64,000 nucleotides of DNA. Origin: a bacterium (GTDB lineage: Bacteria; UBA8248). The position numbers and the translations under genes are program-made. This document shows positions 6,482-58,123 of the stretch, in pieces (the first letter of the stretch is position 1; each line of letters opens with the position of its first letter). Below the pieces are notes generated by a model. The model was not told the origin of the DNA and made no database searches. It saw only the letters and a program-made list of their open reading frames with translations. The stretch covers positions 1,504,001 to 1,568,000 of the forward strand of contig OZ242260.1 in NCBI GenBank assembly GCA_965207065.1, in the 5' to 3' direction.

Positions 6482-7399
6482 GTGCGCCGTGGAAAGGCGC
6501 CATTCCCTAGCGGGTGCGAATCCCGCCCGGCAACTGTCGCTCCAGCCGGTAGCAATCGGGGCGGGTGATGGAGGCAACGACATGGCCTGAAGCACTCCGA
6601 TGGAAAAGGGCCGCCACGGGCGGCTCAGCGACCATGCGGGCCGCAACGCGAGTGAACGCCGAGCAGGCCTCGAAAATGCATGATGCGAGTGCCGACCCGC
6701 CTATGCAACGGGGAAGGCTGTCACCGGCCGGGAAGCGAGCGACATGAGCACCGGCCGGGTCTCGCCGGGGTAGTGGCGGCGGCACGCATGGAAGATGGGA
6801 ATGGCAGCAACACGGGAAGCCCTGCCGGTGGAGCGCACACTCCAACCGGAACCCCGCGAGGGGCAGGCCGGGCCGGCAGGGTGGCGGATGGGCTCGTAGT
6901 ACCTGAGAGGCCGGGTAACGCCGGCGGAGGAAAGGAGCCCTGGTTCGGGAGCGATGCGGAAAGGGAGGAAGGGCATGACCACTGGCGAGAGCCTATCAGG
7001 GTCGGAAAAGGCTCGGAAACTCCAGACCGTGTTACATGCGAAAGCCAAGGAAGAACCCGGACGGCGCTTCCACGCGCTGATAGACAAGGTGTGGCGCGAA
7101 GACTTTCTGGCCGAAGCCTGGAGGCGGGTCCGCCGCAATCGCGGGGCCGCCGGGGTGGACGGAGAGACGTTCGCGGACATCGAGGCGTACGGCGTGGGAC
7201 GCTGGCTCGGGGAACTGGCGCGGGAACTGAAGGATGGGGTATACGCACCGAAGCCTGTGCGACAAGTGCTCATCCCGAAGAAACAGCCCGGCAAGTTCCG
7301 GCCTCTGGGCATCCCCTGCATAAGGGACCGGGTGGCGCAGACGTCGGCCCTGCTCGTGCTTGAGCCGATATTCGAAGCGGACCTGCAACCGGAGCAGTA
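6482..7399 (+). mobile_element. group II intron, 5' portion, truncated by IS256
   Basis: GTGCG start, structured 5' region, candidate EBS1 TATGC (~6702) complementary to exon end GCATA, followed by RT ORF; no DV/DVI after the interruption. Confidence 0.8.
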
Positions 7400-7400
7400 G
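6975..7400 (+). pseudogene. ltrA: group II intron reverse transcriptase/maturase, N-terminal fragment
   Basis: GAAGVDGET, PVRQVLIPK..GKFRPLGIPCIRDRVAQ..LEPIFEADL; ends at the IS256 IR, before YADD. Confidence 0.85.
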
Positions 7401-7429
7401 AGTTACTGTCAAATGTTGTGTATGGCCGT

Positions 7430-7692
7430 ATGTGGACGGCCCCGTAAATGCAAACATGTTGTTTGAACGATTCAGGGTCTGTGGTCAGGTGCAGTCGTAT
7501 GTCCGACCTCTTGGTGCGGCATATCTCTCACCGCGGGCCCGTATGGAGATGCGCGGATCGGGTCCGAATCGTCCTGGCGAGCTCAAGGGCTCTCGGCCAT
7601 ACCCCGGTTTACCCGACCCTGTCTCATTGACCATTTACCCTTACCCGTCCTCCGACCTGCTCACATTCCTGGATAATCCGTTTGTCTGCCGC
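7430..7692 (-). ncRNA. putative seek/bridge RNA region of IS1111 copy 1
   Basis: Homologous to 20160-20430; internal 9-mers at 7594-7602 and 7568-7576 match the two insertion junctions. Confidence 0.75.
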
Positions 7693-8460
7693 TCAGGCGA
7701 CCGGCGCCGGTTCCTGGTAGACTTCTTTCTTCGTCATCAGCGCCCATGCGATGCGCGCCATTCGATTCGCCAGCGCCACCGCGACCAGCATTCGTGGCTT
7801 GCGCGCCAGCATCCGGGCCAGCCATGAGCCCGCCGGCGCGCCGCGCCGGACCGCGCTGCGCACCACCGTCATAGCACCTATGTTCAAGAGCCGCCTGATG
7901 TCGCGCTGTCCCATCTTCGACACTTTGCCCAGTCGGGACTTGCCTCCGGTCGAGTGCTGTCTGGGCACGAGGCCGAGCCAGGCGGAGAAGTCCCGTCCGC
8001 GTTTGAAGCTCTCCAAAGGCGGCGCGAAGGCCAGTATCGCCGACGCGGTGATCGGACCGATTCCCGGGATGCTCATCAGACGCCTCGCCTCCGCATCCGC
8101 GTAAGCGCCCGCGTGGAGTTGCCTCTCCAACTCCCTGATCTTCTCGTTGAGTTCGGCAATTTGATCGAGAAGAACCCCGCCCAACTCGCGGACCACCGTC
8201 GGCAGCTCCGTAACCGGGTCTCCAAGAGCCGCCGCCAGGCGAGAGGTATTCACTAGTCCCTGCGGAGCGATGACCCCGAACTCCGCGAAGTGACCGCGCA
8301 ACGCATTGACAGTCTGCGTGCGCTGGCGAACCAGGAGATCGCGCGTGCGGAACATCATCCCCTGGGCCTGCTGCGTTTCGCTCTTCACCGCCACGAAGCG
8401 CATGGTCGGGCGCGAGGCGGCCTCGCAGATCGCCTCCGCGTCCGCCGCGTCGTTCTTCTG
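7693..8460 (-). pseudogene. IS110 transposase, C-terminal part
   Basis: QKNDAADAEAIC, SIPGIGPITA, AWLGLVPRQHSTGGK, VALANRMARIAW. Confidence 0.9.
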
Positions 8461-8504
8461 ACGCTTGACCAAAAGGGTCACACACTGCCCGTTATCATGA
8501 TGGG

Positions 8505-8945
8505 GTGAGGGTTTATTACCGCTACCATCCGCTGGCGGGCTGCCGCGTAACTTGCCTTGGGCGTCGAAAGGCGTATGGGCAGAGGATGTTGATCATCCGG
8601 CATCCGGACGGAACACAGATGCATGTCCCGGAGTGGATGACCAGGCCGGATGCGGCCCTGCTCGAGGTTCGCGACGTCCCGAGAATCTCCCTGCGGGCGC
8701 TTCGTGAATTGCGGAATCTCATCGATGCGTCTCTTCTTGTACCGGACCAGGCCCGGAGGGGAGGAGACGATGAACACCAGACGCCGAAATTCGAAACAGG
8801 GGGAACTGTTTCCCCCGGAACAACCGCCGCACCTGATAACGGACGAAAGACGCGAGGCGCTGATACCGCTCCTGTCGATGACCATCGCAGTGGCCATGGA
8901 AGCTCCGGGACCGGAGAGCCCGACGAGTCGGGGGGCCGGCCATGA
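8505..8945 (+). CDS. DUF5372-like accessory protein of recombinase element (ends uncertain)
   Basis: RVYYRYHPLAG...PDGTQMHVPEWMT motif. Confidence 0.6.
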   Translation: MRVYYRYHPLAGCRVTCLGRRKAYGQRMLIIRHPDGTQMHVPEWMTRPDAALLEVRDVPRISLRALRELRNLIDASLLVPDQARRGGDDEHQTPKFETGGTVSPGTTAAPDNGRKTRGADTAPVDDHRSGHGSSGTGEPDESGGRP

Positions 8946-8952
8946 GGGGTGA
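8770..8952 (+). CDS. small accessory protein of recombinase element (60 aa)
   Basis: GGAGGAG RBS; MNTRRRNSKQGELF...; overlaps recombinase start. Confidence 0.55.
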   Translation: MNTRRRNSKQGELFPPEQPPHLITDERREALIPLLSMTIAVAMEAPGPESPTSRGAGHEG

Positions 8953-11017
8953 GCAAACAAGGATCACCGCCGGCCATCTGGCGCGCGCGGCCTGTGTCTA
9001 CGTTCGACAGTCCTCACTCGGCCAGGTTCGCAACAACCTGGAAAGCCAGCGCCTTCAGTACGGATTGCAGGCCCGCGCGAAGGAGCTGGGCTGGCGGGAA
9101 GTGATGACGATCGACGAGGACCTCGGCCGTTCGGGAGGTGGCGGCGTCGAGAGGCCCGGCTTCCAGAAACTCCTGAGCGCGGTCTGCGAGAACAGGGTCG
9201 GCATCGTGTTGTCCGTCGACGCCTCCCGCCTGTCCCGAAACGGCCGTGAGTGGCATACTCTTCTCGAGTTCTGCGCCGTGGTCGGCTGCCTCCTGGGAGA
9301 CGGGCGCGGCATCTACGACCCCGGTCTGCCCGATGATCGCATGCTGCTCGGCATGAAGGGGAGCTTCAACGAAATGGAAAGCTCGCTCCTGCGCCAGCGC
9401 TCCCACGACGCCCGTCGCCAGAAGGCGGAGCGGGGCGAGTTGTTCCTGAACCTGCCGGCCGGATACGTGAAGGTCGGGCGCGACGCCATCGCGCTCGACC
9501 CCGACCAGCGGGTGCGCGACGCGGTACGGCACGTATTCCGCAAGTTCACCGAGCTGCGGAGCATTCGCCAGGTGTTCCTGTGGTTCCGGCAGGAAGGAGT
9601 CGAGCTTCCGTATCGCTCTCTCGACACCGGCGTTCATGGATGGCGGGTCGCCTGGAAGCTGCCGGTGTACAATACCGTCCACCAGATCCTGACCAACCCG
9701 ATCTACGCGGGCGCCTACGCCTACGGTCGCAGGAGGCGGCGGAGGGTGATCGAGGAGGGGCGCCAACGCATCGTGAACGAGGTCAGGCGCAACCCGGAGG
9801 AGTGGGCGATATTGATTCGCGACAACCACGAGGGCTATATCTCCTGGGAGGAATATGAACGCAATCGCGGCCTGATCGCGGCCAATGAGCCGAAAATCAA
9901 GGGAGCGGTGCGCGAGGGCGGCGCGTTGCTGACCGGCTTGTTGCGATGCGGTCATTGCACCCACAAACTCCAGGTCGTCTATTCGGGGAACAGCGGGGTG
10001 GGCCGCTACCTCTGCCAGGGCAGGCGGTCGCACACGGATGGTACAACCTGCATCTCCTTTGGTGCGGGCGACGTCGACGAGGCCGTCGCCGCCGCCGTGT
10101 TGCGAGCGGTAGAGCCGCTGGGAGTGGAAGCCGCGCTCGGTGCGCTCAAAGAGCGCGGAAAGGAAGCAGCCGAACGCGCCCGTCTGGCGGAGCTGGCGCT
10201 CGAGGAAGCCCGGTTCCAGGCGGAGCAGGCGCGGGCGCGGTTCGAGGCGGTCGATCCCCGCAACCGCAACGTCATCGGCAATCTCTCGCGGGCATGGGAG
10301 GAGCGCCTCGAGGTCGTGCGGGAGCGGGAGGCCCGGTTGGAGGCGGCGCGCTCACAACTCCAGCTTCAGGAGCCGACACCCTGCGAGCGAGCCGCGTATC
10401 TCGCCCTCGGCGCCGATCTGGAGCAGGCCTGGAACCATGAGAACGTGACGACCGCGATGCGCAAGCACATTCTGCGCGCGGTGCTCGTTGAGATCATCGT
10501 GACCGTCTCGGCCGAGCGGATCGATCTCGTCCTGCATTGGGAGGGCGGCGATCATACGGGACTCTCCGTACGCAGGAGAAAGAGCGGACTAACGCGTATC
10601 GCGGCGGACGCCGACACCGGGACCATGATCCGGGAACTTGCCCGCCTCATGCCGGACCGGGCCATCACCGCGTTCCTGAACCGGGCCGGGAAGCGGACCG
10701 GCAAGGGCAATGCCTGGACCGAGGCGCGCGTACGCGCCTGGCGTTCCCATCACGGCATAGCGGTCTATCGTGATGGGGAGCGACAAGAGCGCAACGAACT
10801 GACACAGACCGAAGCCGCGGCGAGGCTGAAAGTCAGCGCCAGAACAATGAACCGTCTGATCAAGCGCGGCGTTGTTCCGGCCCGCCAGGCCTGCAAGGGC
10901 GCGCCCTGGGTGATATCCGCAGATGCTCTCGAACTGCCGGATGTTGCCCGGGCGCTGAAAAAGGGAGTATACCCGCCGGCACCGGATGATGAACAGAAAA
11001 CCTTTTGTTTTCAATAA
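8942..11017 (+). CDS. large serine recombinase (resolvase, recombinase, Zn ribbon, C-terminal HTH), 691 aa
   Basis: YVRQS catalytic motif, DASRLSRN, ILTNPIYAG, LTGLLRCGHC. Confidence 0.92.
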   Translation: MRGEQTRITAGHLARAACVYVRQSSLGQVRNNLESQRLQYGLQARAKELGWREVMTIDEDLGRSGGGGVERPGFQKLLSAVCENRVGIVLSVDASRLSRNGREWHTLLEFCAVVGCLLGDGRGIYDPGLPDDRMLLGMKGSFNEMESSLLRQRSHDARRQKAERGELFLNLPAGYVKVGRDAIALDPDQRVRDAVRHVFRKFTELRSIRQVFLWFRQEGVELPYRSLDTGVHGWRVAWKLPVYNTVHQILTNPIYAGAYAYGRRRRRRVIEEGRQRIVNEVRRNPEEWAILIRDNHEGYISWEEYERNRGLIAANEPKIKGAVREGGALLTGLLRCGHCTHKLQVVYSGNSGVGRYLCQGRRSHTDGTTCISFGAGDVDEAVAAAVLRAVEPLGVEAALGALKERGKEAAERARLAELALEEARFQAEQARARFEAVDPRNRNVIGNLSRAWEERLEVVREREARLEAARSQLQLQEPTPCERAAYLALGADLEQAWNHENVTTAMRKHILRAVLVEIIVTVSAERIDLVLHWEGGDHTGLSVRRRKSGLTRIAADADTGTMIRELARLMPDRAITAFLNRAGKRTGKGNAWTEARVRAWRSHHGIAVYRDGERQERNELTQTEAAARLKVSARTMNRLIKRGVVPARQACKGAPWVISADALELPDVARALKKGVYPPAPDDEQKTFCFQ

Positions 11018-11040
11018 CGTAGAGGGGTGACTTAGTATGA

Positions 11041-11301
11041 CTGGCGTTTCACGTAAGGCTTCACGTAGACCGGTGGCATGAGCTTCACCTCGTGACCGAG
11101 CCTGCCGATCTCGCGGCCCCAGTAGTGCGCGCTCGCGCACGCCTCCATCGCAATCAGGCAGCGCGGCTGCGAAGCCAGAAAACCCGGTACATTCCCCCGG
11201 GTCAACTTCTTGCGAAACGCGACCGAACCGTCTATGCGCGCGCCATGGAGTTGAAAACCATGTTTCACCAAGTCGATACCGATGATGTGAACCTGTTCCA
11301 T
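11041..11301 (-). pseudogene. IS110 transposase, N-terminal part
   Basis: MEQVHIIGIDLVK, MEACASAHYW, YVKPYVKRQ; GGAGG RBS. Confidence 0.9.
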
Positions 11302-11381
11302 GGGGTCCTCCTTCCGGGCGGTATGAAGACGCCACCTCGCCACAGTGTGATACCTGCCAGGAGGGGTCGTCCACCCCATCG

Positions 11382-12004
11382 TCCTGAGTTCAGCGGCCTC
11401 CCTGCCGGTTTCTTTTTCGTTCACCCCATCGATGAACCTCACGTCGGTGATCACGTCGGCCAGATGACGCAAGCCGCTTAGCCGCCCCCATCGCTTCTCG
11501 GCGCTCATGGCGAGTTGATGCACCAGGCTCAGCGCCGTCTTCTCGCTCAGGCAGTTCCTCGTCTTCGCCGTTCGCAGCCGGATCGTGGCGAAGGTCGACT
11601 CGATGGGGTTCGTCGTCCGGATACTCCGCCAGTGCGCCGCCGGGAAGTCGTAGAAGGCGAACAACTCCTCGCGGTCCCGCGCCAGACACTCGGCGGCCTT
11701 GGGGTACTTCGCCTCCCAGGTGGCGAGAAAGCGTTCAAACGCCTTCTCCGCGCGCTCGCGGGCGTCGGCCCCCCACATCTCATACAGCATCGGCCTCGCT
11801 TCGCTCTGAACGCTTTTGGGCAGCTTGTCCAGAACGTTCGCCGTCTTGTGAACCCAGCAGCGCTGCGCCCGGGTCTCGGGATACACCTCGGCCAGCGCCG
11901 ACCAGAACCCCAGCCCCCCGTCGCCCACCGCCAGCTTCGCCGCCTTCACCCCCCGCTCCCGCAGGCTCAACAGAACCGCCTTCCAGCTCTCCTTCGATTC
12001 CCGG
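11382..12004 (-). pseudogene. IS256 transposase, C-terminal part
   Basis: RESKESW, LAVGDGGLGFW, QRCWVHKTAN, IRTTNPIESTF. Confidence 0.9.
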
Positions 12005-12024
12005 TTATGTAGAGCTCTACATAA

Positions 12025-12138
12025 CCGGGATTATGTGGAGTTCATGGTTATGTGGAGTTCATCCTGGAGTTCGTTGTTTTTGTGTGGTTTGCGGGTAGCG
12101 AACTCCACATAACTTTTGCATCGTCTCTCCTGTCCGCG
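12025..12138. repeat. RIT left terminal inverted repeat (114 bp)
   Basis: Reverse complement of 15393-15506 with one mismatch; internal TTATGTGGAGTTC repeats. Confidence 0.92.
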
Positions 12139-12191
12139 TCGTTTCGGAGAGCGGCGGCAAGACAGGCCTGCCGCCGCTCTCCGTTCCCTCA

Positions 12192-13202
12192 TCAGCACCT
12201 CGAGCGTTGTCCGTCTCCATTGCCTGCGAGCATGGCGAGCAGCTTGTCGGGCGCCCGGAAGCGACCCGGCCGGAGGTCCGGCAATCGGGCGCCGTCGAGC
12301 ATCTCGAGTTTTTCTGTGGGGTCGGCGTGCAGATAGACCTCGGTGCTCTGGATGGTCGCATGTCCGAGCCAGAGGGAGACCTTGCGCATGTCCCCGGTTG
12401 CCTGAAGCGTATGCATCGCGCAACTGTGTCTCAGGGTGTGGGGCGTCACGTGTTTGCCGGCGAGGCCCGGCTCCGCCCTGGCCGCGTTCTTCAGATGTTT
12501 TGCGAGTATGACGTTGAACCCCCAGCGGCTCAGCCTTCGCCCGAGCCGGTTGTGGAACAGTTCCGGGTCGCCTTCGGGGTCGCGCAGGCGGAGCCATGCC
12601 TCGATGCCCGAGCGCGTCTCTTTCCAGAGCGGAAGTCTCCGCTCGCGGCGTCCCTTGCCCATGATCCGGACGCCGGCCGGCGCCCGGCGGTCGTAGTCGT
12701 CGAGCTTCAGGGCGGTCAGTTCACTGACGCGCAGTCCGCAGGCGTACGTCAGATGGAGCATGGCCCGGTCACGTATTCCGTCCCTTCGCCCCGGGTCGGG
12801 CGCGTCGAGCAGGGCCTTGATCTCGGCGCGGGTGAGCCAGGCCACCAAGGCCTTGTCTGCCTTCTTCTTCGGGATCAGGGCGATCCGGACGGCTTGCTCC
12901 AGGGTGCCGGGCTCGCGCCATTCGACGAAGCGGAAGAACGCCTTGACGGCCGCGAGGCGCGCGTTGCGCGTACTGACGGCCGCGCCCTTGCGCTCGACGT
13001 GCTCCAGGAAGGCGAGCACCATATCCGCGTCGATCTGCTCGAGAGCAAGCTGCGAAGGTCTCACCCCGAGCCTGCGGGCGACGAAGCGCAGCAGCAGCGA
13101 CAGCGCTCGCGAGTAGGCGTCCACCGTGTTCGGGCCGGCGCCCTTCTCAAAGGGGAGATGCTCGGACACGAAGGCGCTTGCATGCCGGGCCAGCGGGGTC
13201 AT
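12192..13202 (-). CDS. ritC: RIT tyrosine recombinase C
   Basis: GLRVSEL, GKGRRER, TPHTLRHSCA, WLGH, TEVY. Confidence 0.88.
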   Translation of the reverse strand: MTPLARHASAFVSEHLPFEKGAGPNTVDAYSRALSLLLRFVARRLGVRPSQLALEQIDADMVLAFLEHVERKGAAVSTRNARLAAVKAFFRFVEWREPGTLEQAVRIALIPKKKADKALVAWLTRAEIKALLDAPDPGRRDGIRDRAMLHLTYACGLRVSELTALKLDDYDRRAPAGVRIMGKGRRERRLPLWKETRSGIEAWLRLRDPEGDPELFHNRLGRRLSRWGFNVILAKHLKNAARAEPGLAGKHVTPHTLRHSCAMHTLQATGDMRKVSLWLGHATIQSTEVYLHADPTEKLEMLDGARLPDLRPGRFRAPDKLLAMLAGNGDGQRSRC

Positions 13203-14116
13203 GACGCGTCCTCCCCATGGAAGGCTTCCGTCCGCCGGGCGACTTCTCCCAGCAGCGCCTCGGTGCTCTCGTGATACCACCAGGTATGGGCGACGGAGGC
13301 ATGGCCGAGCCAGGCGCTGAGAGCGACCATGTGCCGGGCGACCGCCCGCCGCCCGGAGCCGCAGGCTTCGAGCGAGCGCACCGCGAAGGTGTGGCGCAAG
13401 TCGTGGATACGCGGGTTGCGCCCGTCTTCCCGCGCACCTGCGAGACCTGTGCGCGAGCGCATCCGGCGGAACACGGCGCGGGCCGCGGAAGGACCCATGC
13501 GGCCGCGGCCGTCGGCCAGGAAGAGGGCTTCGGTATCCGCCGGCACGCGAACCCGCGCCCGGAGGTGACGCGCGAGTTGCGTTTCGACCGTGGGATGGAA
13601 GGGCAGCAGGCGCCGTCCTCCACGCTTCGCCGTCCTGACCATCAGTCCCTCCGGGGTGACGTCATCCACGTCGATCGCCAGCGCCTCGCAGCCCCGCAGT
13701 CCGGTGGCGGCGATCAGCCCGAACAGGATCCGGTACTGGCCCGGGACCGGGCACCTGATCGTGGCGCACTCATCGGCCACGGCCAGGAGCGCGGCGATCT
13801 CGGAAGCAGAGTAGATGTAGGGCTTGGGCCGCACCCGGTGCGCGCGGGGCAGGACGTCCGCCGGAGGCGCCTCGTGCCGGGGGTCCTCCACGGCCATCGC
13901 CAGGGCGAAGCGGCGCACGAGCAACACCAGTCTGCGCCGCTGCAGGGCCGATGAGGAACGGCGCGCCCATTCGAGGACGCTCTGCGTGTTGACGTGGCTA
14001 TCGCCGCGGGCCTGCGCGAAGGCGGCGTAGTTCGCGAGACGCCGGGCGTCCTTGCGGAAGCTGCGCCCGGCGGCGCGGATGGAGGCGACGTATCGCTCGA
14101 CGGCATCGACGATCAT
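13199..14116 (-). CDS. ritB: RIT tyrosine recombinase B
   Basis: PYIYS, ATGLRGCEA, PRIHDLRHTFAV, AWLGH..HTWWY. Confidence 0.88.
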   Translation of the reverse strand: MIVDAVERYVASIRAAGRSFRKDARRLANYAAFAQARGDSHVNTQSVLEWARRSSSALQRRRLVLLVRRFALAMAVEDPRHEAPPADVLPRAHRVRPKPYIYSASEIAALLAVADECATIRCPVPGQYRILFGLIAATGLRGCEALAIDVDDVTPEGLMVRTAKRGGRRLLPFHPTVETQLARHLRARVRVPADTEALFLADGRGRMGPSAARAVFRRMRSRTGLAGAREDGRNPRIHDLRHTFAVRSLEACGSGRRAVARHMVALSAWLGHASVAHTWWYHESTEALLGEVARRTEAFHGEDAS

Positions 14117-16322: not shown

Positions 16323-17291
16323 CTATCTATCAGGCCATATTTCAGCATCCTCGCCCGGTTCTTGATTTGGCCTGAAATCCAGCAGGTAGGTTTCGGGGTC
16401 GATTTTCGAGAACGTAACATCTGTCCGGCCATACTCGATGAGGTGATGCCTCGTCACATACACGCCAGAACCAACACGTAGACGCGCCCTCAAGTAAGCA
16501 CCGAGCAAACTGTTGTCCTGTGTAGTGTGCAATCCCTTTCCGGCATCTTGAGCGCGAACACATATGAAGCTGTCGCCATCATCCGTAAGAACCGTGAATT
16601 GCTCAAACCTGTCAGGGAAGAATCCACTACGCCCCACGCTTGCGGGAATGTTGATGTAGGCTTGGTTCGGGTTTCTCCCAGACCTTTGCCCCCAGTTAAT
16701 GCCCGATCTGGTAGGCGTCTCACCTTCTCTCGAAAGAAGAGTGAGGGTAACGCTTTCAAGTGGGCTTCCCGTCTCAAAACCCTTCCGGCTTTGCAGCAAG
16801 GTGATCTGAGTGTCGATATGGGGCTGAATGCAGTCCGATGCGTTCCTGAGAATGAGGTTGTGGAAGTCGTTTGCATCGCATGAATCGGCTGGGGACATGA
16901 CCTCTATTTGCGCCCTTCCGAATCCCGTCATAGTATAGTTGGCGGAGCCGCAGAAAGCCTTTATCGGCTCTCCTTTGGCATTCAACCACACATACGATTT
17001 AGCATGAACTGGATTGCCTCGAACCACGTATCGGCAAATGAAGTCCGTATCCCAGGACGGATGATCCATCATTTTGCAGAATGCGGAATGCTGGGCTTCC
17101 TCTATCCCGTGTTGTATCGTCATGCCGATTATGAGTTCTATCGAGATGTTGAGGTCTAGTTCCTTCAGGTGCTCCATATGCCTGTCGGCCATATTCGCGG
17201 TAGCGAATCCGCTGACAATACGCAGGCGCCCTCCGTTCACGTCATACGCGGGCGATAGCAGGACTTCACGGAAGAGGTCTTCGTGGATCAT
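16323..17291 (-). CDS. PLD-type restriction endonuclease (NgoFVII-like)
   Basis: IVSGFAT, HAKSY...GSANYT PLD motif, SGINWGQ..RNPNQAYI; coupled to the MTase. Confidence 0.8.
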   Translation of the reverse strand: MIHEDLFREVLLSPAYDVNGGRLRIVSGFATANMADRHMEHLKELDLNISIELIIGMTIQHGIEEAQHSAFCKMMDHPSWDTDFICRYVVRGNPVHAKSYVWLNAKGEPIKAFCGSANYTMTGFGRAQIEVMSPADSCDANDFHNLILRNASDCIQPHIDTQITLLQSRKGFETGSPLESVTLTLLSREGETPTRSGINWGQRSGRNPNQAYINIPASVGRSGFFPDRFEQFTVLTDDGDSFICVRAQDAGKGLHTTQDNSLLGAYLRARLRVGSGVYVTRHHLIEYGRTDVTFSKIDPETYLLDFRPNQEPGEDAEIWPDR

Positions 17292-19544: not shown

Positions 19545-20432
19545 GAAGGCTGCGGTGCCATCTGGCGGAGTTCGGGCTCATCGCTCCAAAAGGGGCCGGT
19601 TCATCTCACATGGTTGCTGTTGGCAGTGAAAGGTCTGGACTCGGGTCTGCCGGAGGCGGTGCACGAACTGGGCGGGGTTCTGCTCGCGTAGATTGCCAGC
19701 CTGAAGGAGAAGATACAGGAGTTGGAGGGGCAACTGCGCGCGAGCGCGCGCGAAGACGAGGAGGCGAGACACCTGATGAACATCCCGGGGGTCGGGTCGC
19801 TCTGCGCGTCGGTGATACAGGCCTTCGCGCCGCCGATGGAAAGCTTCCGACACGGGAGGGATTTCTCCGCCTAGATCGGCCTCGTGCCCCGACAACACTC
19901 CACGGGCGGCAAAACGCGGGTGGGCAGAATATCAAAGATGGGCCAGCGCGACATCAGGCGGCTTTTGATCATAGGGGCCATGGCGGTAGTGGGTTGGGCG
20001 GTCCGGCGCGGCGCGCCGGCGGGTTCATGGTTGGCCCGGATGTTGGCGCGCAAACCTCTTATGCTGGTCGCGGTGGCGCTGGCGAATCGAATGGCGCGCA
20101 TCGCTTGGGTGTTGATGACGAACAGGGAATTCCACAAGGAGCCTGTGCCGGTCATCTGAGCGGCAGGCGAGTGAATATAGCCGGGAGGAATGTAAGCAGG
20201 TCGGAGGACGGGTAAGGGAAAATGGTCGACGAGACGGGATCGGGAAAACCAGGGTACATTCGAGAGTTAACAAGCTCGCGAGGCCGATTCGGACCCGGTC
20301 CGCGCATCTCCATACGGGCCCGCGGTAAGAGTTAAACGCCGCAAACGAGAGGTCGGACATACGACTGCACCTGACCACGGACCCTGAATCGTTGAAATAA
20401 CATGCTTGTATTCACGGGGTCGTCCACATACG
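19545..20432 (+). mobile_element. second IS110/IS1111 copy, 5'-truncated, transposase pseudogene
   Basis: Homologous to 7430-8300; internal TAG stops; PRQHSTGGK; right end GGGGTCGTCCACATACG. Confidence 0.85.
20160..20430 (+). ncRNA. putative seek/bridge RNA region of IS1111 copy 2
   Basis: Same scaffold as copy 1; GTACATTCG (20254-20262) is the reverse complement of flank CGAATGTAC (20431-20439). Confidence 0.72.
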
Positions 20433-20508
20433 AATGTACGACAGAGCCTGACCGTATTGCGACGAACCCTCCGAAGAAAACGCTTGCATTCTAGTGGGCG
20501 TCCATGTT
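20431..20508 (+). mobile_element. right-end remnant of a third IS1111-type element
   Basis: TACGACAGAGCCTGACC...CTTGCATTCTAGTGGGCGTCCATGT parallels TACGACTGCACCTGACC...TTGCATTTACGGGGCCGTCCACAT of copy 1. Confidence 0.55.
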
Positions 20509-20618
20509 CATAAATATACGATTGGGTGAACGCGACCTCCCATCGACAGCGACTCGTTTGCTTTTGTTGCCAAGTCAGCGCATGCCACTTAACGAGATGT
20601 ATCAGTGGGAGTGAGGAA

Positions 20619-41938: not shown

Positions 41939-42898
41939 TCAGGCTGCAACGCGCTGGACGGGGATACCGAGGGTTTTAGCTTTGTCGACGAGGTTGTCGG
42001 TGATGCCCGAACCCGGGAACGCGATCACGCCCTTGGGCAGGAGTGCGAGGAGTTCGTCGTTCCTGCGGAAGGGAGCGGCCCTGCCGTGGGCGTCCCAATC
42101 CGGTTTGCAGACGACCTGGTGGACGCCGTTCCGCTCGGCCCATCCCGCCGCTATCTTCTCCGCACCGGGGCCGCCGCCGTGGACGAGAACGACGTCGGCG
42201 TACTTGGCCTTGACCTTGTCGAGGTGGCCGATGATTTTGCCCGCATCGCTCGCCTCCTTGCCTCCCGCGACGGCGACGAGGGTTCCCTGGGGCAAGTGGG
42301 CCGTGTTCTCGCGGTCCTTTCTGGCTCGCTGGAAGTCGCGCGCCTCGATGACAGCGGAGGTGAGCTTGCCGGTCTGGCTGACGTGGGAACCTCGCCTCGG
42401 CCGCCATACCTCGCCGGTCTCGATGCGGTAGGCTTCTGCTGCCGTGTCCCTGAGTCCCTCGAAGGCGTCCCTGCGCTCCGTGAGGTTGTTGGCCCGGTCG
42501 GTCTTGAGTTCGAGTTCACGCGACCTGATCTCGGAGCCGTCCTGCTCACGCTGTAGTTCGCGGACCCCGGGGATGAGCCTGTCGGCGGCGCGGTCGAGGC
42601 GTTGTGTCTGTGCGTCCAGGGTGTTGACGAAGCCCCAGAGGAGGTTTCTTCGCTCATCCGCGAGCTGCGTTCCATCGGGCACGGCTTCTGCGAGTGCGCT
42701 GAAGGCCTTGATGACGGCGGCGGTTGCTTCGCCCTCGTCCCACACGGGGCGGTTGTCGAACTCATCAGGCCCGGGCGTGGCGCCGAACAGGGCGGCCTGC
42801 TCGCAGACCATGGCGGTGAAGGATTCGTTCTGCGCTTCGTGTTCCGTGTGCTCGTGCATGTTCATCTCCTTGTGGTCATGAGTCGCGGTGGCAGTCAT
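41939..42898 (-). CDS. DUF2493 (SLOG-fold) domain protein
   Basis: VAVAGG, LVHGGGPGAEKIAAGWA, PDWDAHGRAAPFRRN, AFPGSGITDNL. Confidence 0.8.
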   Translation of the reverse strand: MTATATHDHKEMNMHEHTEHEAQNESFTAMVCEQAALFGATPGPDEFDNRPVWDEGEATAAVIKAFSALAEAVPDGTQLADERRNLLWGFVNTLDAQTQRLDRAADRLIPGVRELQREQDGSEIRSRELELKTDRANNLTERRDAFEGLRDTAAEAYRIETGEVWRPRRGSHVSQTGKLTSAVIEARDFQRARKDRENTAHLPQGTLVAVAGGKEASDAGKIIGHLDKVKAKYADVVLVHGGGPGAEKIAAGWAERNGVHQVVCKPDWDAHGRAAPFRRNDELLALLPKGVIAFPGSGITDNLVDKAKTLGIPVQRVAA

Positions 42899-42947
42899 CG
42901 TTCACTCCTTTCAGTGATTGGGTTTTCAGCCGTTGGTTCGGTTGTCC

Positions 42948-43319
42948 TCAAGCGAGGGGATGGTTGAATTCGGGAAGAGCGAAGCCACGCTCGTTGCGCC
43001 CCACTTCTTTGGGCATCTCGTCGAGATATTTGGCTGCCCACTCGGCGGCGCGTGCGAGGACGTCGCCGTGGCACGGGAGGGGCCAGCAGTGACAGCCGAG
43101 CTCGCAGCCAAGGAGGTCGGCGAGTTCGTAGAGGTCGAGCTCCTGGCGCTGGATTTTTCCCCACAGCCATCGCCGGTATTTCTCGATCACGACGTCGCGG
43201 TCGCCGTCGGCACCGACCCGGAAGGGGTTTCCCCACTTCGTCATGCGGTCGATCCTGACCAGCAAGCCACTGCCGTTTTCTGCGATATAGTCGTTCAGGT
43301 TCACCACGGTGGTTTCCAT
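42948..43319 (-). CDS. DUF4326 domain protein
   Basis: IDRMTKWGNPF, VIEKYRRWL, LGCHCWPLPCHGDVL. Confidence 0.85.
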   Translation of the reverse strand: METTVVNLNDYIAENGSGLLVRIDRMTKWGNPFRVGADGDRDVVIEKYRRWLWGKIQRQELDLYELADLLGCELGCHCWPLPCHGDVLARAAEWAAKYLDEMPKEVGRNERGFALPEFNHPLA

Positions 43320-43354
43320 GCCTTTCTCCTTTCCAGAGAGTTAACGGATATGCT

Positions 43355-43585
43355 TCTTAGCGCCTCATTTTCAGCACGTAAGGGCATCGGGCGGTGTTGC
43401 CGATGCCCGTAGGCGGGCGAATCAAGGGCTTGTCATTTTCCGGGGGGTTCCCGAAAAACACGGTTCATAGAGCGGCGCTCCTGTTTTTTGCCGCTCGACG
43501 TTTTTGGGGGGGCACCGGCAAATGATGGCCGCTTGCGGCCACCCTTTATTCGCTCGGCGTTCGTGCTAAAATGAGGACGCTAAGA
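43355..43585. promoter_or_regulatory. 230-bp imperfect fold-back, candidate single-strand promoter/ssi
   Basis: Arms TCTTAGCGCCTCATTTTCAGCACG and CGTGCTAAAATGAGGACGCTAAGA, inner paired segments and two side hairpins. Confidence 0.6.
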
Positions 43586-43976
43586 GAGAGACATCAGTAC
43601 CGCCACCGGGACACAAGAGTTTTTGGTGTTTCACGATGAAGGCGAAGCTCATCGGGAAACATCCCTTCATGCTGCGGAAAGGGTCATTTCGGGCCGTTTT
43701 TTCCGGCCCGAAATTCCCGCAGCGGGGGGTGGACCGAGCCACTGTCTTGAGTATGGAGTGAGTGCAGGCGCCTGCAGATCTTCCGTGAACATGGTTTACC
43801 GTTCACGGAACCGGAGATTCCTCGGGTGCTCCCGGTAGACGAGAGAAGCCGACAAGGCGGGAAAGACGAGTGCCTCATCCATGGCTGCGGGAGAGGGTGT
43901 TCGGGGCATGACGGACCTCCTCTGGATAACAAGCAAAAAAAGGGGCCGGCGCCGTAACGCCGACCCCCCGGGGTGA

Positions 43977-44417
43977 TCAGAATGGAATGTCTTCGCCCAC
44001 TACGCCTGCCGCCACCACCGCCGTCTCGGGGTGCGCGCCATTGCCGTTGCCATTTCCGTTCCCGTTCATCTTCTCCAGGAACTGCACCCGCCCGCCGGGC
44101 GCGATGAGGATCTCGGTCGAGAACCGGTCCGAGTCTTCCTCGTCCTTCTTCCAGCGCCTGGTCTGGAGCTTGCCCGCGACGTAGACCAAGCGGCCCTTCT
44201 TCGCGTGCTTTTCGAACATGTCCACCAGGCCCGGCTGGAAGGTGACGACCCGGTGCCACTCGGTCTTGTCCACCCGATCGCCGGACTGCTTGTCGACGTA
44301 GCCCTCGTCGGTGGCGATCGAGAGGTTGGCGACGCGTCCGCCGCTCGCGAGATGGTTGATGGTGACGTCGGCGCCGAGACGCCCGATCAGTTCCGCTCTG
44401 TTGAGTCCGAATGCCAT
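43977..44417 (-). CDS. ssb: single-stranded DNA-binding protein
   Basis: LNRAELIGRLGAD, KTEWHRVV, GKLQTRRW, C-terminal DIPF. Confidence 0.95.
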   Translation of the reverse strand: MAFGLNRAELIGRLGADVTINHLASGGRVANLSIATDEGYVDKQSGDRVDKTEWHRVVTFQPGLVDMFEKHAKKGRLVYVAGKLQTRRWKKDEEDSDRFSTEILIAPGGRVQFLEKMNGNGNGNGNGAHPETAVVAAGVVGEDIPF

Positions 44418-44814
44418 TTTGATTCTCCTTGAAGTGTAGTGTGGATGATAAAGTCGAGGAGCCGGAAATCCTTTCTCTCCGCCCCCCGGTTCGCCCTAAA
44501 CGCTACAGAACTCCTCCGTCTCGCCTTGCGCCTCGTCGCGCAGCTTGCGGATCGTGTACGCGTCGAGTCCGAGTTCTGCGAGCAACTCATCTGCGGTGGG
44601 AATGTCGACGTCGTAGTCGTTCTCGTACATGGCCAGGCCTCCTCTCGCGTTGTCGCCGGCGGCGGGAACTGGAGACCGTCTCCCTCTCCCTACCGGGCAT
44701 TTGCCCGGCTCTCCGCTTCACTCTCACTCTCGAGGGGAGGTCTTCATCCGGCGGGGAGCGCTCACGGAACGCGCCTGCCCTTGCATCGGGCCCTGAATTA
44801 TTGTCGGATGAGGC

Positions 44815-45231
44815 ATGGACGGACGAAGGCGCACGGGAAGATTCAGGTTCTGGTTACCGGCGCTCCTGTGGCTGCCGGCGGGGATGATTGCGGGCGAGGT
44901 TCTGCGCACGGGCTCAGCGGAGCAGGTGATGACACCCTCCTCGCTCATGGAGTTGCCGGCGGTTGCTCCGTTCGGCCTGCCGCTGGCGCTCGCCTGCCGG
45001 AGGCTGGCCCGCTCGGGCTATCCGGGTCCCGCCCTGGTGGCGTGGTTGGCGCTAGGAGCCGCCGCTGTGGCGGACCTCCCCGGTGCGCTGCCCGTCGGCG
45101 TTCAGGTGATCCTGGTCTCTCTTCCGGTCTGGCTGGCGGCGTGGCGGCTCACGCCGCGGCCCCGCGGCCCGGGATTCGCCCCCTCGTCACGACGACCGGA
45201 GAGCCGGAGGTTTCGCGGTCCGTTCCGGTGA
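44815..45231 (+). CDS. hypothetical membrane protein
   Basis: GAGG RBS; several hydrophobic helices. Confidence 0.45.
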   Translation: MDGRRRTGRFRFWLPALLWLPAGMIAGEVLRTGSAEQVMTPSSLMELPAVAPFGLPLALACRRLARSGYPGPALVAWLALGAAAVADLPGALPVGVQVILVSLPVWLAAWRLTPRPRGPGFAPSSRRPESRRFRGPFR

Positions 45232-45374
45232 CGGTCGTCAAACCCTCCCTCCCCGGCCGGGTCTGACCCTCCGTCGGCGGCCGGCCGGCTGCGCAGCAGG
45301 GCGACGCCGTACCCTCCCTCCCCGCTCGGTTCCGGCCCCCGCCGTCGGGCGGACGGCTGCATGTGCAGGCGCGC

Positions 45375-46190
45375 TCACCAGGGAGCCGCGGTGAGTTTCG
45401 CCATCACGGAGATATCCTCAACCACCTCGACCTCCTCCCGGGAGAGTTTCGCGAAGGCGAGGCACATCGCCACCTCCTCCCAGGAGTCCAACGGTCCGTG
45501 CTCGATACCCGTGGCGAGCTCCACAACTGTGTAGCGTGGTGGATGGACGGGCATCCCCCTGTGCACGCCCGAGGAGTGCCAGGAGCGCGAAGCGCAACGG
45601 GCGCACCTGGCAGCTCCATCAGTCGGCGATGAGCAGTCAACACATGCCACGCGAGCGCGCCTTGCATGATAGCGTGCCCGGCTCGCGGCGTTCTTGCGCG
45701 GACGGCGCTTCGAATCCCTTGCGGTGCACGAAGCGCAAGTAGAAGCGTTGTCGATTACTTCCGCCCCGCACCGTCCGCATCGCCCCCCGGCGCGCCTTTC
45801 GGCGTAGAGCTTCCTCTCGGCCGCCCGGCGTTCTTCGCGGCAGGGCGTGCAGACCGCGCTTCCTACAACGGGCGCCTGCCGTCCGCACATCGCACAGAGG
45901 CCCGCCTCGCGTCGTTCGCGTCTTCGCCTCCTGTTCCTCTCCCGCGCCATGCGCCGGCGGCTCTCGGGATCCCGCCCGCCATATCGAGTACCCTCTGATT
46001 TGGCTCTGGCGTATCGGGCTTGTTCGGACTTGCGTCCTCTCTTGAGGCAGTTCGCGCAGAGGCTTCGCTCGGGCACGGGAGGATGTTTGCCGCACCTGGG
46101 GCACATGCCCCGCGCGCGGCGCTCGGCCGCGCTTCTCCTGTGGCGTTCGCGCTCATAGGCGCGCCTGGTTTCCGGATCCTTGTGAGGCAT
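45375..46190 (-). CDS. Arg-rich protein with repeated CxxC pairs (putative multi-Zn-finger)
   Basis: Four units of CxxC-x~9-CxxC separated by basic helices; GAGG RBS. Confidence 0.65.
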   Translation of the reverse strand: MPHKDPETRRAYERERHRRSAAERRARGMCPRCGKHPPVPERSLCANCLKRGRKSEQARYARAKSEGTRYGGRDPESRRRMARERNRRRRRERREAGLCAMCGRQAPVVGSAVCTPCREERRAAERKLYAERRAGGRCGRCGAEVIDNASTCASCTARDSKRRPRKNAASRARYHARRARVACVDCSSPTDGAARCARCASRSWHSSGVHRGMPVHPPRYTVVELATGIEHGPLDSWEEVAMCLAFAKLSREEVEVVEDISVMAKLTAAPW

Positions 46191-46702
46191 GGGATTTTCC
46201 TCATGTGTCGGTGAAGTCGTACGGCCGGCAGTGGGCCGGCCAGACGTCTTGCGGGCTCATCCCCGGCTCATCATCTGTCCCCAGACGAGGTGCTCGCCCC
46301 ACAGTTGCAGGCCGCTGGCGGGGATTTTGATCCCCGTACAAATGATGAGCTCGTCCCGGGCGGGACGCATCTCCCTGACAACACGCCGCGAGGCCGTCAC
46401 GCGTTTTCTTCTGCGCCCCGCGCTCTCCCCTGCGGGCAGGGGTCTGAGTTCACCCCCGCCCGAGGATTTGTAGCGCCTTACCTCGTAACGCTCGTCCGCC
46501 AGGCCCTGTCCCAAGAGATGGGTGAGGAAGGGTGCTTTCGTCTTCTCGTCTTCCCCGTACAAATGATGAGGTTTCCGAGGATTTGTAGCATCGCGCGCCT
46601 CCTTGCAAAGGTGAATGATGGCGGCGGAAGCGAGCCTCTCCCGGCCCTCTTCCGCCGCCCCCTCCCGGCCAGGCTCCGCCTCTCCGAGGCGCGAGGCGGG
46701 GA

Positions 46703-47035
46703 TCAGGGAGCCGGGTCGTGACCGTGAAGCTCCTGCTCTTCGAGGTCGCGGAGGTGTGCGTAGCGTCCGGTCCTCGTCGTCCAGTCGAAGCGCTCGCCGT
46801 GATCGTCGGGGAGCCGGTAGCGGGTGAAGGCCGTCCAGTCCCCATGGCGGAACCCCCGCCACAGGACGCACGAGAGGGCGGCGATGAAGGCCCAGAGAGC
46901 CGCACAGAACCAGACGTCCCAAAGGAGGCGGAGTCCGCTCCCGGCCGCGAGAGAGAAGATCGTGGCGAGGAGCGCGAGAGCGGGTCCCGCCAGAACGAGG
47001 GCCCGGGCGTATGGGGAAGGATTCGGGTCACTCAT
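46703..47035 (-). CDS. small hypothetical membrane protein
   Basis: GGAGG RBS; two TM helices. Confidence 0.5.
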   Translation of the reverse strand: MSDPNPSPYARALVLAGPALALLATIFSLAAGSGLRLLWDVWFCAALWAFIAALSCVLWRGFRHGDWTAFTRYRLPDDHGERFDWTTRTGRYAHLRDLEEQELHGHDPAP

Positions 47036-47416
47036 GGGTCGCGCCTCCAGGGATGCGGGTGAGGGGAATGCGGGCGCCGCCCGGCCTCTCCGGCCAGGCT
47101 CCCGCACCCCCTGACGGCCCGGCTCCGCCTCTCGCCGGCGCGGCAGCGGTCTTCGCGGAACCCCTGACGTCCTCATCCCGAGTAGACGCGTATGCGCCGT
47201 TTCGAAGGATGGGGGGGCACATCTGCCCGGCGGGCGCGAACTTCGCCGTTCGACGGGCTCGGGACAGCCCCTTCGATACGCGGCTTCGCCGCTACTCCGG
47301 CCGAGGCGGAGCGGCGGCCGTCCCGGGATGAAAATGAATTTCCGTCATTCCCGGACCCGGAAGTTGCGCATCCACTATTAAAGATGCATGTTATATATGT
47401 ATTTGGAGGGTGTCTG

Positions 47417-47778
47417 ATGAGGCTTACGGTTCAGACAGTCTACGCTCTCAGGATGCTCATGCACCTGTCCTGCCACTCCGGCGCTCTGGTCACGATCCAC
47501 GAGATCGCGGAGCGATACGGGATATCGAAAAATCATCTGATGAAGGTCGCGCATTCATTGAGGCGCGCAGGGTTTGTCGAAACGAACCGGGGCGGCGGGC
47601 TTCGGCTCTCGAAACCGGCGAAGGCGATTCTTGTGGGAGCCGTGGCGAGACGAATGGAACAGGGCAGCGCGCTCGTCGAATGCTTTCCCGGGGCAGAAAG
47701 GGATGCCTGGTCGCGCCGATGTTGCGTGCCGCCGTCATTGGCGCATCACGCAGTTCCGGATGGGAGGATTCCACATGA
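47417..47778 (+). pseudogene. Rrf2/NsrR-like regulator, frameshifted
   Basis: MRLTVQTVYALR, ISKNHLMKV, GGGLRL, LVECF. Confidence 0.8.
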
Positions 47779-48056
47779 TTGAGAATGTGCCGGCGGGACT
47801 CGTCAGATTCTACGGAAGCAAAGTATTCACCGGGAAGACGGTTCCCCAAAAACCCGGGACCCTGCACGATGCGAAGCCCGGCATCCGGGGCGGAATCGTG
47901 GTTCCTGACGGTTGCCTCGACCATGTCGTTCCGTATTCGCCCGAGCGGCGTCGCCGCCTCGAGACCGGCGACTACGGCGTCATCCGGCCTGCCGGGCCCC
48001 GCCGCGTGGGACTTCCCGGAAAAGTTCGGTTCAAGCTGGAATTCACCGGCGCATAG
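47775..48056 (+). CDS. DUF1971/TehB-N-like cupin, possibly degenerate
   Basis: SKVFTGKTVP..HDAKPGIRG; ATGA-coupled to the Rrf2 gene. Confidence 0.55.
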   Translation: MIENVPAGLVRFYGSKVFTGKTVPQKPGTLHDAKPGIRGGIVVPDGCLDHVVPYSPERRRRLETGDYGVIRPAGPRRVGLPGKVRFKLEFTGA

Positions 48057-48059
48057 ACA

Positions 48060-48340
48060 CGGACCGGAATTCGCCCGGACGCGCAGCCGCGTCGGGGCGC
48101 CTCGCCCCCTCTCATCCGTTGCAGTACGCCCGCGAGGCCCGGGAGTGGCGCAGATCATGGATCCGCACGCCCTTAATGCCCGCGCGCTCCCTTATGAGAC
48201 GTCAGGCCCCGTCGACGTTCCTTAAGCGCGTCCCCGGCTTCCTGCCGGGGGTCACCCAGGTCTCCCCGGGGTGGGCGGGAGACCCGGGAAGAGTTTGAAC
48301 GCGGGCCCTGAGAGCGAAACGACCCGCGCGCCCGCCTTGG
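48060..48340 (-). pseudogene. tyrosine integrase C-terminal remnant
   Basis: PGRKPGTRLRNVD..IRERAGIKGVRIHDLRHS; homologous to 51430-51650. Confidence 0.7.
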
Positions 48341-48595
48341 AGTCTTAATGCCAGAAAGATCAAAAATCAGGAGTATGAATCAATAAGTTGGAACCAATGC
48401 GAAACTGAGTGGAATCAGGAACTCTGTCAGCCGCAGGAGTCAAGATTTGCGGCATCGCACGTTCCTGATGGTGCGGATGCGTTCCTGTGAACATACCGGG
48501 CCGTTGCGACAAAGCGCAGAATGCGGATAACATCGAGGATCATCAACTCTGGACTTCGCCGATTCGTTTGCGTTTACCGGGAAAGGAAAATTACG

Positions 48596-57343: not shown

Positions 57344-58123
57344 TCAGTTCGCCGCCGCAATGGAATCCTTGGATTCAATCGCCTCATCCATCTCGTCGAT
57401 AATCGCCTTCGCCGCGCTGAACGGGTCGTCGTTTTTCGTGATGGGCCTGCCCACGACGAGATAGTCCGAACCCATGCGGATGGCGTCCGCAGGCGTCGTG
57501 ATTCGCTTGTGATCGTCCGAGGCGGACCACGCCGGCCGGATTCCGGGGCTTACGATATCGGCGTTCGGGAACCTCTCGCGGCAGGCCCCGATGGCGTCGC
57601 CCGAGACGATCAGCCCGTCGCATCCCTCGGCGAGCAGCTTCTCCCCGCGTTCGAGAATGTATTGCGCCGAATCCGTTCCCGTAATTCCTTCGCTTCGCAA
57701 GTCATCATCACTGAGACTGGAGAGCAAAGGCACCATCAGGAGTTTGGGATGCTCCGCTGTCCCTCGGGTTTTGAGCGCGGTTTCTATCGTCCTGGTCGTC
57801 ATCACGTAGGGCATGGACTCGGTGAGCGTGACGAACCTGACGTTCAGGGAGGTGCAGCCCTCGATGAAGCTGGCGATCGTGTTGCCGATGTCTCCCGACA
57901 GCTTGAGATCGACGAACACTCCGCCTTCGCCTGAGCGGCGCTCCTGCAGCTCATTGATGAATCCGAGCAGGTTCCCCGCCAGAAAGAGTTCGAGCCCGAC
58001 CTTGAAAAAGGATACGTTCTCGAGTTTCTCGACCAGCGTGAGCGCTTCCTCGTGCGTCGGCACGTCCAGCGCAACGATAAGGCGGTCTTTGCCGCTCAGG
58101 TTCGCCGCGGGTCGCTCCCCCAT
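57344..58123 (-). CDS. pyrF: orotidine-5'-phosphate decarboxylase
   Basis: LIVALD, FKVGLEL, VDLKLSGDIGNT, SPGIRP, VVGRPI. Confidence 0.92.
   Translation of the reverse strand: MGERPAANLSGKDRLIVALDVPTHEEALTLVEKLENVSFFKVGLELFLAGNLLGFINELQERRSGEGGVFVDLKLSGDIGNTIASFIEGCTSLNVRFVTLTESMPYVMTTRTIETALKTRGTAEHPKLLMVPLLSSLSDDDLRSEGITGTDSAQYILERGEKLLAEGCDGLIVSGDAIGACRERFPNADIVSPGIRPAWSASDDHKRITTPADAIRMGSDYLVVGRPITKNDDPFSAAKAIIDEMDEAIESKDSIAAAN

Follow-up and report, generated by a model that had tools for sequence, protein, structure and literature searches.

The 64-kb window (the whole 64,000-nucleotide stretch of bacterial DNA analysed here) holds an IS1111-family insertion sequence, element A, at 7429-11381 on the minus strand. 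The element sits in the right end of an IS256-family remnant, and its own transposase gene is split by a 2,583-bp element that encodes a large serine recombinase (Table 1). The adjoining stretch 6508-7399 carries group II intron domains at 6508-6771 (RF02003 at 6508-6651, E 1.3e-18; the only strong Rfam matches) and an intron-type reverse-transcriptase frame that is cut at 7399 by the IS256 end. Intron, IS256 element, IS1111 element and serine-recombinase element are thus nested four deep.

Table 1. Features of element A and of the IS256-family remnant around it, in window coordinates.
Feature	Position	Strand	Remarks
Outer piece of IS256-family right end	7400..7426	-	Tip 7400; inverted repeat ~26 bp (7400-7425); IR profile match
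Right half of IS1111 target	7420-7426	-	GCCATAC on element strand
CG core dinucleotide, right junction	7427..7428	-	Also present at 11380-11381; one copy is part of the element
IS1111 right end	7429..7443	-	3-nt extension ATA (7429-7431) and 12-nt subterminal inverted repeat (7432-7443)
3' non-coding region, 264 nt	7429..7692	-	Encodes predicted seekRNA/bridge RNA
Predicted donor-binding module	7494..7548	-	d1 CUCCAU 7543-7548; P4 7536-7539/7505-7508; P5 7530-7534/7516-7520; d2 ACAUA + CG + AC 7494-7502
Predicted target-binding module	7555..7619	-	P1 7612-7619/7555-7562; P2 7606-7607/7564-7565; encloses guides and P3
Target guide 2	7568..7576	-	CAGGA + CG, then AU; identical to top strand of left half-site and core
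Hairpin P3 between target guides	7579..7592	-	Paired in 96.7% of cells; one base pair occurs as AU, UA, CG and GC
Target guide 1	7594..7602	-	GUAUGGC + CG; complementary to top strand of right half-site and core
IS1111 transposase gene, C-terminal part	7693..8469	-	Stop codon 7693-7695
Inserted 2,583-bp element	8470..11052	+	DUF5372-like ORF (8505-8945) and 691-aa large serine recombinase (8942-11017)
IS1111 transposase gene, N-terminal part	11053..11301	-	ATG 11301-11299
IS1111 left end	11302..11381	-	7-nt extension CGATGGG (11375-11381), subterminal inverted repeat (11363-11374) and 5' leader
Inner piece of IS256-family remnant	11382..11970	-	Left half-target CAGGA 11382-11386, then C-terminal part of Mutator-type transposase (PF00872, E 3.5e-33)

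The ends of the element were set to the base by comparing its copies with empty sites. Contigs of all four public runs, two of which look like one data set filed twice, contain the junction 7426->11380, which skips 3953 bases with 3 ambiguous letters; subtracting the 2583-bp insert gives element A a unit length of 1,370 bp. In public-run contigs, the right end and guides of A also run into the IS256 tip, with other DNA following beyond 7400. A CG core is present at both junctions, and this 2-nt core is all that they have in common, without target duplication. With one CG counted as element, the terminal extensions are asymmetric, with 7 nt (CGATGGG) on the left and 3 nt (ATA) on the right. The subterminal inverted repeat is 12 nt long, shows 100% complementarity in copies B and C of the same genome, where its two arms lie 1336 nt apart, and is complementary at 11 of 12 positions in A. 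Downstream of the transposase gene of A the non-coding sequence measures 264 nt, against 80 nt upstream. The C-terminal part of its transposase matches Transposase_20 (PF02371, 3.9e-23) and DEDD_Tnp_IS110 (PF01548, 1.5e-09), an intact sibling transposase matches the same two families (7.6e-25 and 2.9e-13), and the C-terminal domain reads GLVPRQHSTG in A and GLVPRQHSSG in sibling C. In the excerpts of Siddiquee et al. 2024 (PMC11187229) that we draw on, the defining IS1111 motif is GL-P----S(t)G in the C-terminal domain of the transposase, and the traits of the family include subterminal inverted repeats of 11-13 bp, extensions of 7 bp and 3 bp, a transposase of 330-350 aa and a longer non-coding region downstream of the transposase gene. 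Element A has the defining features of the IS1111 family.

The two transposase pieces, 11301..11053 and 8469..7693 on the minus strand, read through as one IS110/IS1111-type transposase with the break after ...KPYVKRQ, and the corresponding joint in public-run contigs, 8467->11051, skips 2583 bases. A contig of public run X5 bridges the junction near 8470. An imperfect 12-bp direct repeat borders the insert (8458-8469 and 11041-11052, 9/12 identical) and leaves the insert boundaries ambiguous within it; both repeat copies encode V-K-R-Q in the transposase frame. The insert is single-copy in the genome, and homologues of its serine recombinase in 60 related genomes are only 36-55% identical. 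The insert looks like an integrative element with an attachment site in a conserved motif of IS110-type transposase genes. Since its transposase gene is broken, copy A is unable to move alone and could act only with the transposase of a sibling.

Joining the two pieces of the IS256-family remnant restores the target CAGGA-CG-GCCATAC. As the original prediction had it, this target overlaps the IS256 inverted repeat: the site occupies bases 21-34 from the right-end tip and includes the inner 6 of the ~26 bp of the repeat. The rebuilt 14-bp sequence is found uninterrupted once elsewhere, at genome position 2249684 (tip and target at 2249684-2249717), so that the genome holds the exact site twice, each time in the same IS256-family right end, once occupied and once empty. 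Both of these IS256 copies are remnants. In the uninterrupted copy, the IS256 transposase frame stops 9 bases from the tip, and IS1111 insertion therefore removes the last five codons of the IS256 transposase; in the window, the frame runs on to 11032. In the genome, ten IS256-family ends agree over ~26 bases counted from the tip. The exact site is limited to the right end of one subfamily, and where other IS256 copies carry the site with a single mismatch, it is the core that is altered (TG or CA instead of CG).

Both halves of this target recur as strings in the 3' non-coding region of A. The string GTATGGCCG, at 7602..7594 on the minus strand, is the reverse complement of the right junction CGGCCATAC at 7428..7420, and CAGGACGAT, at 7576..7568, recurs at the left junction at 11386..11378, likewise on the minus strand; both matches had been noted from the sequence, and they lie exactly where they were placed. 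Of CAGGACGAT, only CAGGA plus CG matches the target, and the final two letters (AT) correspond to the left end of the element itself. The complement of the top strand lies 5' of the match to the bottom strand, which is the order given for IS1111 elements in the excerpts of Siddiquee et al. (PMC11187229). A third string, ACATACGA (7502..7495), consists of the last five right-end bases, CG and the first left-end base and matches the circle junction that had been predicted.

How readily such strings arise by accident was gauged over both strands of the 64-kb window, in which each of the two 9-mers occurs three times and in both cases two of the three occurrences are at the predicted places: GTATGGCCG at 7420-7428 (+), 7594-7602 (-) and 16426-16434 (-), with a shuffled expectation of 0.44 and 0/100 shuffles reaching three, and CAGGACGAT at 7568-7576, 11378-11386 and 57786-57794 (all -), with an expectation of 0.62 and 4/100 shuffles reaching three. 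The latter figure, together with the length of only 9 nt for each match, is what speaks for chance, or for wrongly set ends that would turn the supposed flanks into an internal repeat. Empty sites, however, fix the ends to the base, siblings with other flanks carry other guides, and the cognate versus non-cognate statistics given below held in two sets, which leaves this explanation with next to no probability.

The same genome holds four siblings of A, namely copies B (genome position 354643), C (1934520) and D (4447707), and the 5'-cut copy F in the window at 19647-20437. A check of the flanks of all copies, which had been suggested along with the original prediction, showed that the siblings differ from A in both guide blocks and that each fits its own flanks. 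The right half-targets are GCCATAC for A, GCGGTAC for B, GCCAGAC for C and D, and AATGTAC for F, and each of the four guide sets matches its own flank at 9/9 positions on the right; the full sites read CAGGA-CG-GCCATAC (A), CCCGC-CG-GCGGTAC (B) and TGGGC-CG-GCCAGAC (C and D). Siblings that are ~97% identical over the transposase-gene DNA carry three different guide pairs. Copy B is broken near the N-terminus of its transposase, and C and D are intact, encode a 341-aa transposase and have the same ends and the same predicted donor strand d2 (see below) as A. Copies C and D are 99.9% identical to each other (1371/1372), whereas identity between their flanks is 81-89% over 300 nt and falls to 65-74% over 1 kb, from which we conclude that they are independent insertions at a homologous site in the same orientation. 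Exact empty sites number one for A, two for B and one for C and D, the last at window 46232-46245.

Copies B, C and D lie on either side of a 271-aa zinc-ribbon ORF in a ~7-kb unit that is repeated about ten times in the genome. Window 42276-49257 is one of these copies, which are 70-95% identical and consist of uncharacterised genes, including a YspA/SLOG-type protein and the zinc-ribbon ORF; it is the copy that holds the empty C/D-type target. Searches of the unit's genes against NCBIfam and PHROGs returned nothing except a SLOG/GTP-binding-like match. The non-coding region of copy F is complete (20153-20437) and runs straight into the terminal portion (profile positions 198-291) of a second IS1111 non-coding region, the whole spanning window 19647-20525. 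The site of F, GAGGC-CG-AATGTAC, is matched by its guides and stands directly before the donor strand of the host element. An exact 14-nt match to the predicted target of F at genome position 602400 (L033:1901-1914) was set aside: it lies in a short intergenic fragment, ~27/28 bases of which are like an IS1111 non-coding region, and no full non-coding region is present there.

We compared guides and flanks across relatives in two sets, reading the guides by alignment columns; motif-based extraction had mis-placed many. The first set comprised the own genome and 29 loci of related genomes (17/61 genomes matched, own included), from which duplicate rows and one interrupted copy were dropped to leave 22 distinct elements. 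On the right, an exact run of at least 7 was found in 14/22 cognate versus 6/428 non-cognate pairs, and on the left, an exact run of at least 6 in 10/14 versus 3/174. The second set was drawn from named records of other classes and phyla, with 80 loci kept of 574 relatives; 38 of the 52 second-set rows of alignment A2 were used, and 14 whose right end could not be located were dropped. Here the right guide agreed in 24/38 cognate versus 5/1366 non-cognate pairs and the left guide in 21/32 versus 10/962. Misses on the right (8/22 in the first set, 14/38 in the second) include decayed, nested or one-base-shifted cases. A search for a second copy with the guide pair of A gave 0 exact-pattern matches in genome contigs and in metagenome contigs, from which own or near-identical records are perhaps excluded; repeat choice of a target by the same guides was therefore not seen in an independent insertion.

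A structure for the RNA was proposed from alignment A2 (73 sequences), and its pairs were then counted. In these sequences 89.0% of cells pair, compared with 30.7-40.2% for slid partners; both sides have changed in 18 pairs, and 0/500 shuffles reach any of five measures, one of the pairing controls (control (b)) being somewhat flattering because the structure was derived from the same sequences. Helix P1 (8 bp) is 98.3% paired with compensatory changes in 7/8 pairs, and P2 is 97.9% paired. With P1/P2 and hairpin P3 supported, both target guides fall in an internal loop closed by these stems, so the fold and covariation check that had been called for places the two guide strings between covarying stems in the 73 sequences. 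The guide columns are the variable columns of the alignment.

In the predicted donor module, P4 is 99.3% and P5 98.1% paired. The strand d2, read as the 5 nt after P4 plus the core, equals the last 7 nt of the element in 51/91 rows with 11 distinct variants; among the other 40, the last core base is the sole difference in 10, 14 are truncated and 16 disagree, most of which look misaligned. As d2 follows the right end across variants, the circle-junction string ACATACGA gains support as a donor guide. The core of target guide 2 is the core of d2 in 70/73 rows (CG 44, TG 24, AG 2). The putative second donor strand d1, CUCCAU in A, can pair with the first six left-end bases if G-U pairs are used, and it shows some matching changes, such as CGCCAT with ATGGCG; distinct cognate combinations average 5.46/6 paired positions versus 4.70 for non-cognate ones, which is weak support.

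The core dinucleotide varies by lineage (CG, TG or AG) and agrees between target and donor guides. In several elements (junctions examined at L003, L007, L014 and L019), CA stands at the right junction, against CG at the left junction and in guide 2, a difference that suggests tolerance or resolution of a core mismatch at the second position. Two further helices, P0 (7622-7625/7546-7549; 72.6% paired) and P6 (7550-7554/7489-7493; 60.1% paired), were rejected, and with both pairing poorly no outer closure of the donor module was found in the 73 sequences. A pairing of 7629-7632 with 7536-7539 proposed by RNAalifold conflicts with P4 and was not counted separately, and a single-sequence fold with a z-score of only -2.30 and paired guide bases was set aside. 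Scanned against Rfam, the stretch 6500-13500 yielded no family for 7420-7700 at E up to 1.

The position of the guides also bears on whether the transposase protein could pick the target, with the matching strings a by-product copied at insertion or by gene conversion. Covariation of guides and flanks would arise either way, but the strings sit in a conserved loop between covarying stems, ~140-175 nt inside the element and not where copying at a junction would write them, and transposases that are ~97% identical at the DNA level use different sites. Moreover, published tests, as given in excerpts of Siddiquee et al. (PMC11187229), establish the seekRNA as essential and redirect insertion by reprogramming it. 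We consider choice by the protein very unlikely.

A 253-nt contig of an RNA library covers 7400-7641 with 1 differing letter. It may stem from carried-over DNA, such contigs give neither ends, strand nor level, and its stop at 7641 is near where the siblings become nearly identical and may be an assembly break. A scan of 7350-8000 for sigma-70-like promoters gave 0 sites. A conserved TTGCAT stands 17 nt before the hexamer that joined ends would form, and the two would fit a junction promoter of the kind that excerpts of Siddiquee et al. (PMC11187229) describe as formed by joined ends. The predicted RNA is probably made and loaded on the transposase. Since C and D share the ends and d2 of A, the predicted RNA of the broken copy A could still work with their intact transposase.

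From the anatomy of the element, the covariation of guides with flanks and with element ends, the stems and the empty site, all presented here, we put at roughly 90% the probability that this IS1111 element was inserted in fixed orientation at the CG core of a 14-bp site in an IS256 end, via a predicted two-module seekRNA/bridge RNA encoded in its 264-nt non-coding region. In the mechanism we propose, the 5' strand of the target loop would pair with the top strand of the right half-site and core, and the 3' strand, target guide 2, would pair with the bottom strand of the left half-site and core. The putative donor strand ACAUA-CG-A is identical to the right end of the element plus the core, and the second donor strand, CUCCAU, could pair with the first six left-end bases after the core. 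The transposase loaded with this RNA would then join the circular element to the 14-bp site, as experiments have demonstrated for ISEc11, ISPa11, ISKpn4 and IS621. That IS110/IS1111 elements use bridge RNAs or seekRNAs, which the original prediction had invoked as background, is published (Siddiquee et al. 2024, PMC11187229; Durrant et al. 2024, PMC11208160, both drawn on in excerpt).

The further claim that element A homes to IS256 ends is supported, within limits. The guides do specify a site in an IS256 right end, but that site exists only twice, in one subfamily, and may be one case of a broader habit of the clade. All five copies of the group in this genome sit in multi-copy DNA (A in an IS256 element; B, C and D in the repeated unit; F in an IS1111 non-coding region). 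Outside it, IS1111 elements nested in the non-coding region of another IS1111 were found at L004/L028, L008/L020, L058 and L059, with guides that match the site. These four cases lie at GAGGY-CG before the donor strand of the victim, and in L036 an element with matching guides is nested elsewhere, at GCAAA-CG further upstream; insertion at GAGGY-CG splits the predicted guide RNA of the victim. The nesting genomes include two Longimicrobiales MAGs and one Alphaproteobacteria MAG. A distant IS1111 lineage in three related genomes (L014, L026 and L027) lies in IS256-family repeats, ~10-12 bases from the tip and in the orientation opposite to A. At these three loci (near locus positions 1413-1500) the left junction is CG and the right junction CA. 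A separate observation concerns L061:3669-6002, where a 131-nt unit is repeated in tandem at least 17 times at 100% matches, with two variants of 161 nt; each unit covers the IS1111 non-coding region from its donor strand d1 up to its right end, and L036 has a single such partial duplication.

These locations could mean that the clade lives as a parasite of other mobile DNA, with guides repeatedly re-aimed at multi-copy mobile sequences, the targets being IS256 ends (at two positions), the ~7-kb repeated unit and the guide-RNA genes of other IS1111 elements; we offer this tentatively and at less than even odds. An incidental location, in which the 14-bp sequence called for by the guides falls in an IS256 end by coincidence and there is no tendency towards IS256 or mobile DNA, would agree with the mere two exact sites in the genome, both in remnants of one subfamily, with the core mismatches of the other IS256 copies, and with a profile scan for IS256 inverted repeats in L001-L118 that found only 4 loci (L001, L014, L026 and L027) with an IS256-type repeat beside an IS1111 end. 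We nevertheless hold it to be unlikely, given the multi-copy surroundings of all five copies, the IS256-family repeats around the distant lineage and the known aiming of IS4321 and IS5075 at transposon ends. If the re-aiming to mobile sequences is selected and not incidental, bridge RNAs would be tools of hitch-hiking as well as of conflict between transposons. The set of targets suggests a preference of RNA-guided insertion sequences for landing in other mobile DNA; such a preference, if real, would bear on how they spread without harm to the host and on competition between transposons.

The mechanism and the reading of guides from sequence are already known, and this locus is a further clear example, in which the target of an IS1111 element can be read to the base from sequence alone. 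Among the matches listed in a search of literature titles, none concerned IS1111 with an IS256 inverted repeat or nested IS1111 targets, which is weak evidence of absence from print. IS4321 and IS5075 are said (Partridge and Hall, in 2003) to insert in the terminal inverted repeat of Tn21-family (Tn3-type) transposons. Element A is like them in its family, in its subterminal inverted repeats and in occupying one position and orientation in the repeat of another transposable element. It differs in that it lies in an IS256 right end instead of a Tn21-family repeat, with only the inner 6 repeat bases in its site, and, by description, in its guides.

In IS621, the RNA is located 5' of the gene, the guide order is reversed and the core is CT, whereas A has its predicted RNA 3' of the gene, a CG core (replaced in relatives by TG or AG) and long subterminal repeats. 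The IS621 bridge RNA was reportedly also the subject of work by Hiraizumi et al. in 2024. The predicted modules of A nonetheless resemble the target and donor modules of the IS621 bridge RNA, each of which, in the excerpts of Durrant et al. (PMC11208160), reads both strands around a common core, with the cores agreeing. According to the same excerpts, 93.0% of IS1111 elements have a predicted bridge RNA in their right end.

In layout, A resembles ISEc11/ISXne4, ISPa11 and ISKpn4/ISPst6, which, in the excerpts of Siddiquee et al. (PMC11187229), have a non-coding region 3' of the gene, subterminal repeats of 11-13 bp, extensions of 7 bp and 3 bp and a short RNA with the top-strand complement 5' of the bottom-strand match, as predicted in A, and include related elements that are naturally re-aimed. 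Unlike A, they aim at a short linear site, REP sequences or attC sites (PMC11187229, same excerpts). The transposases of the re-aiming pair published there are 72% identical (PMC11187229, in excerpt), whereas the siblings described here are ~97% identical over the gene DNA, reside in one genome and carry three guide pairs, and they thereby form a natural test series for the re-aiming of guides.
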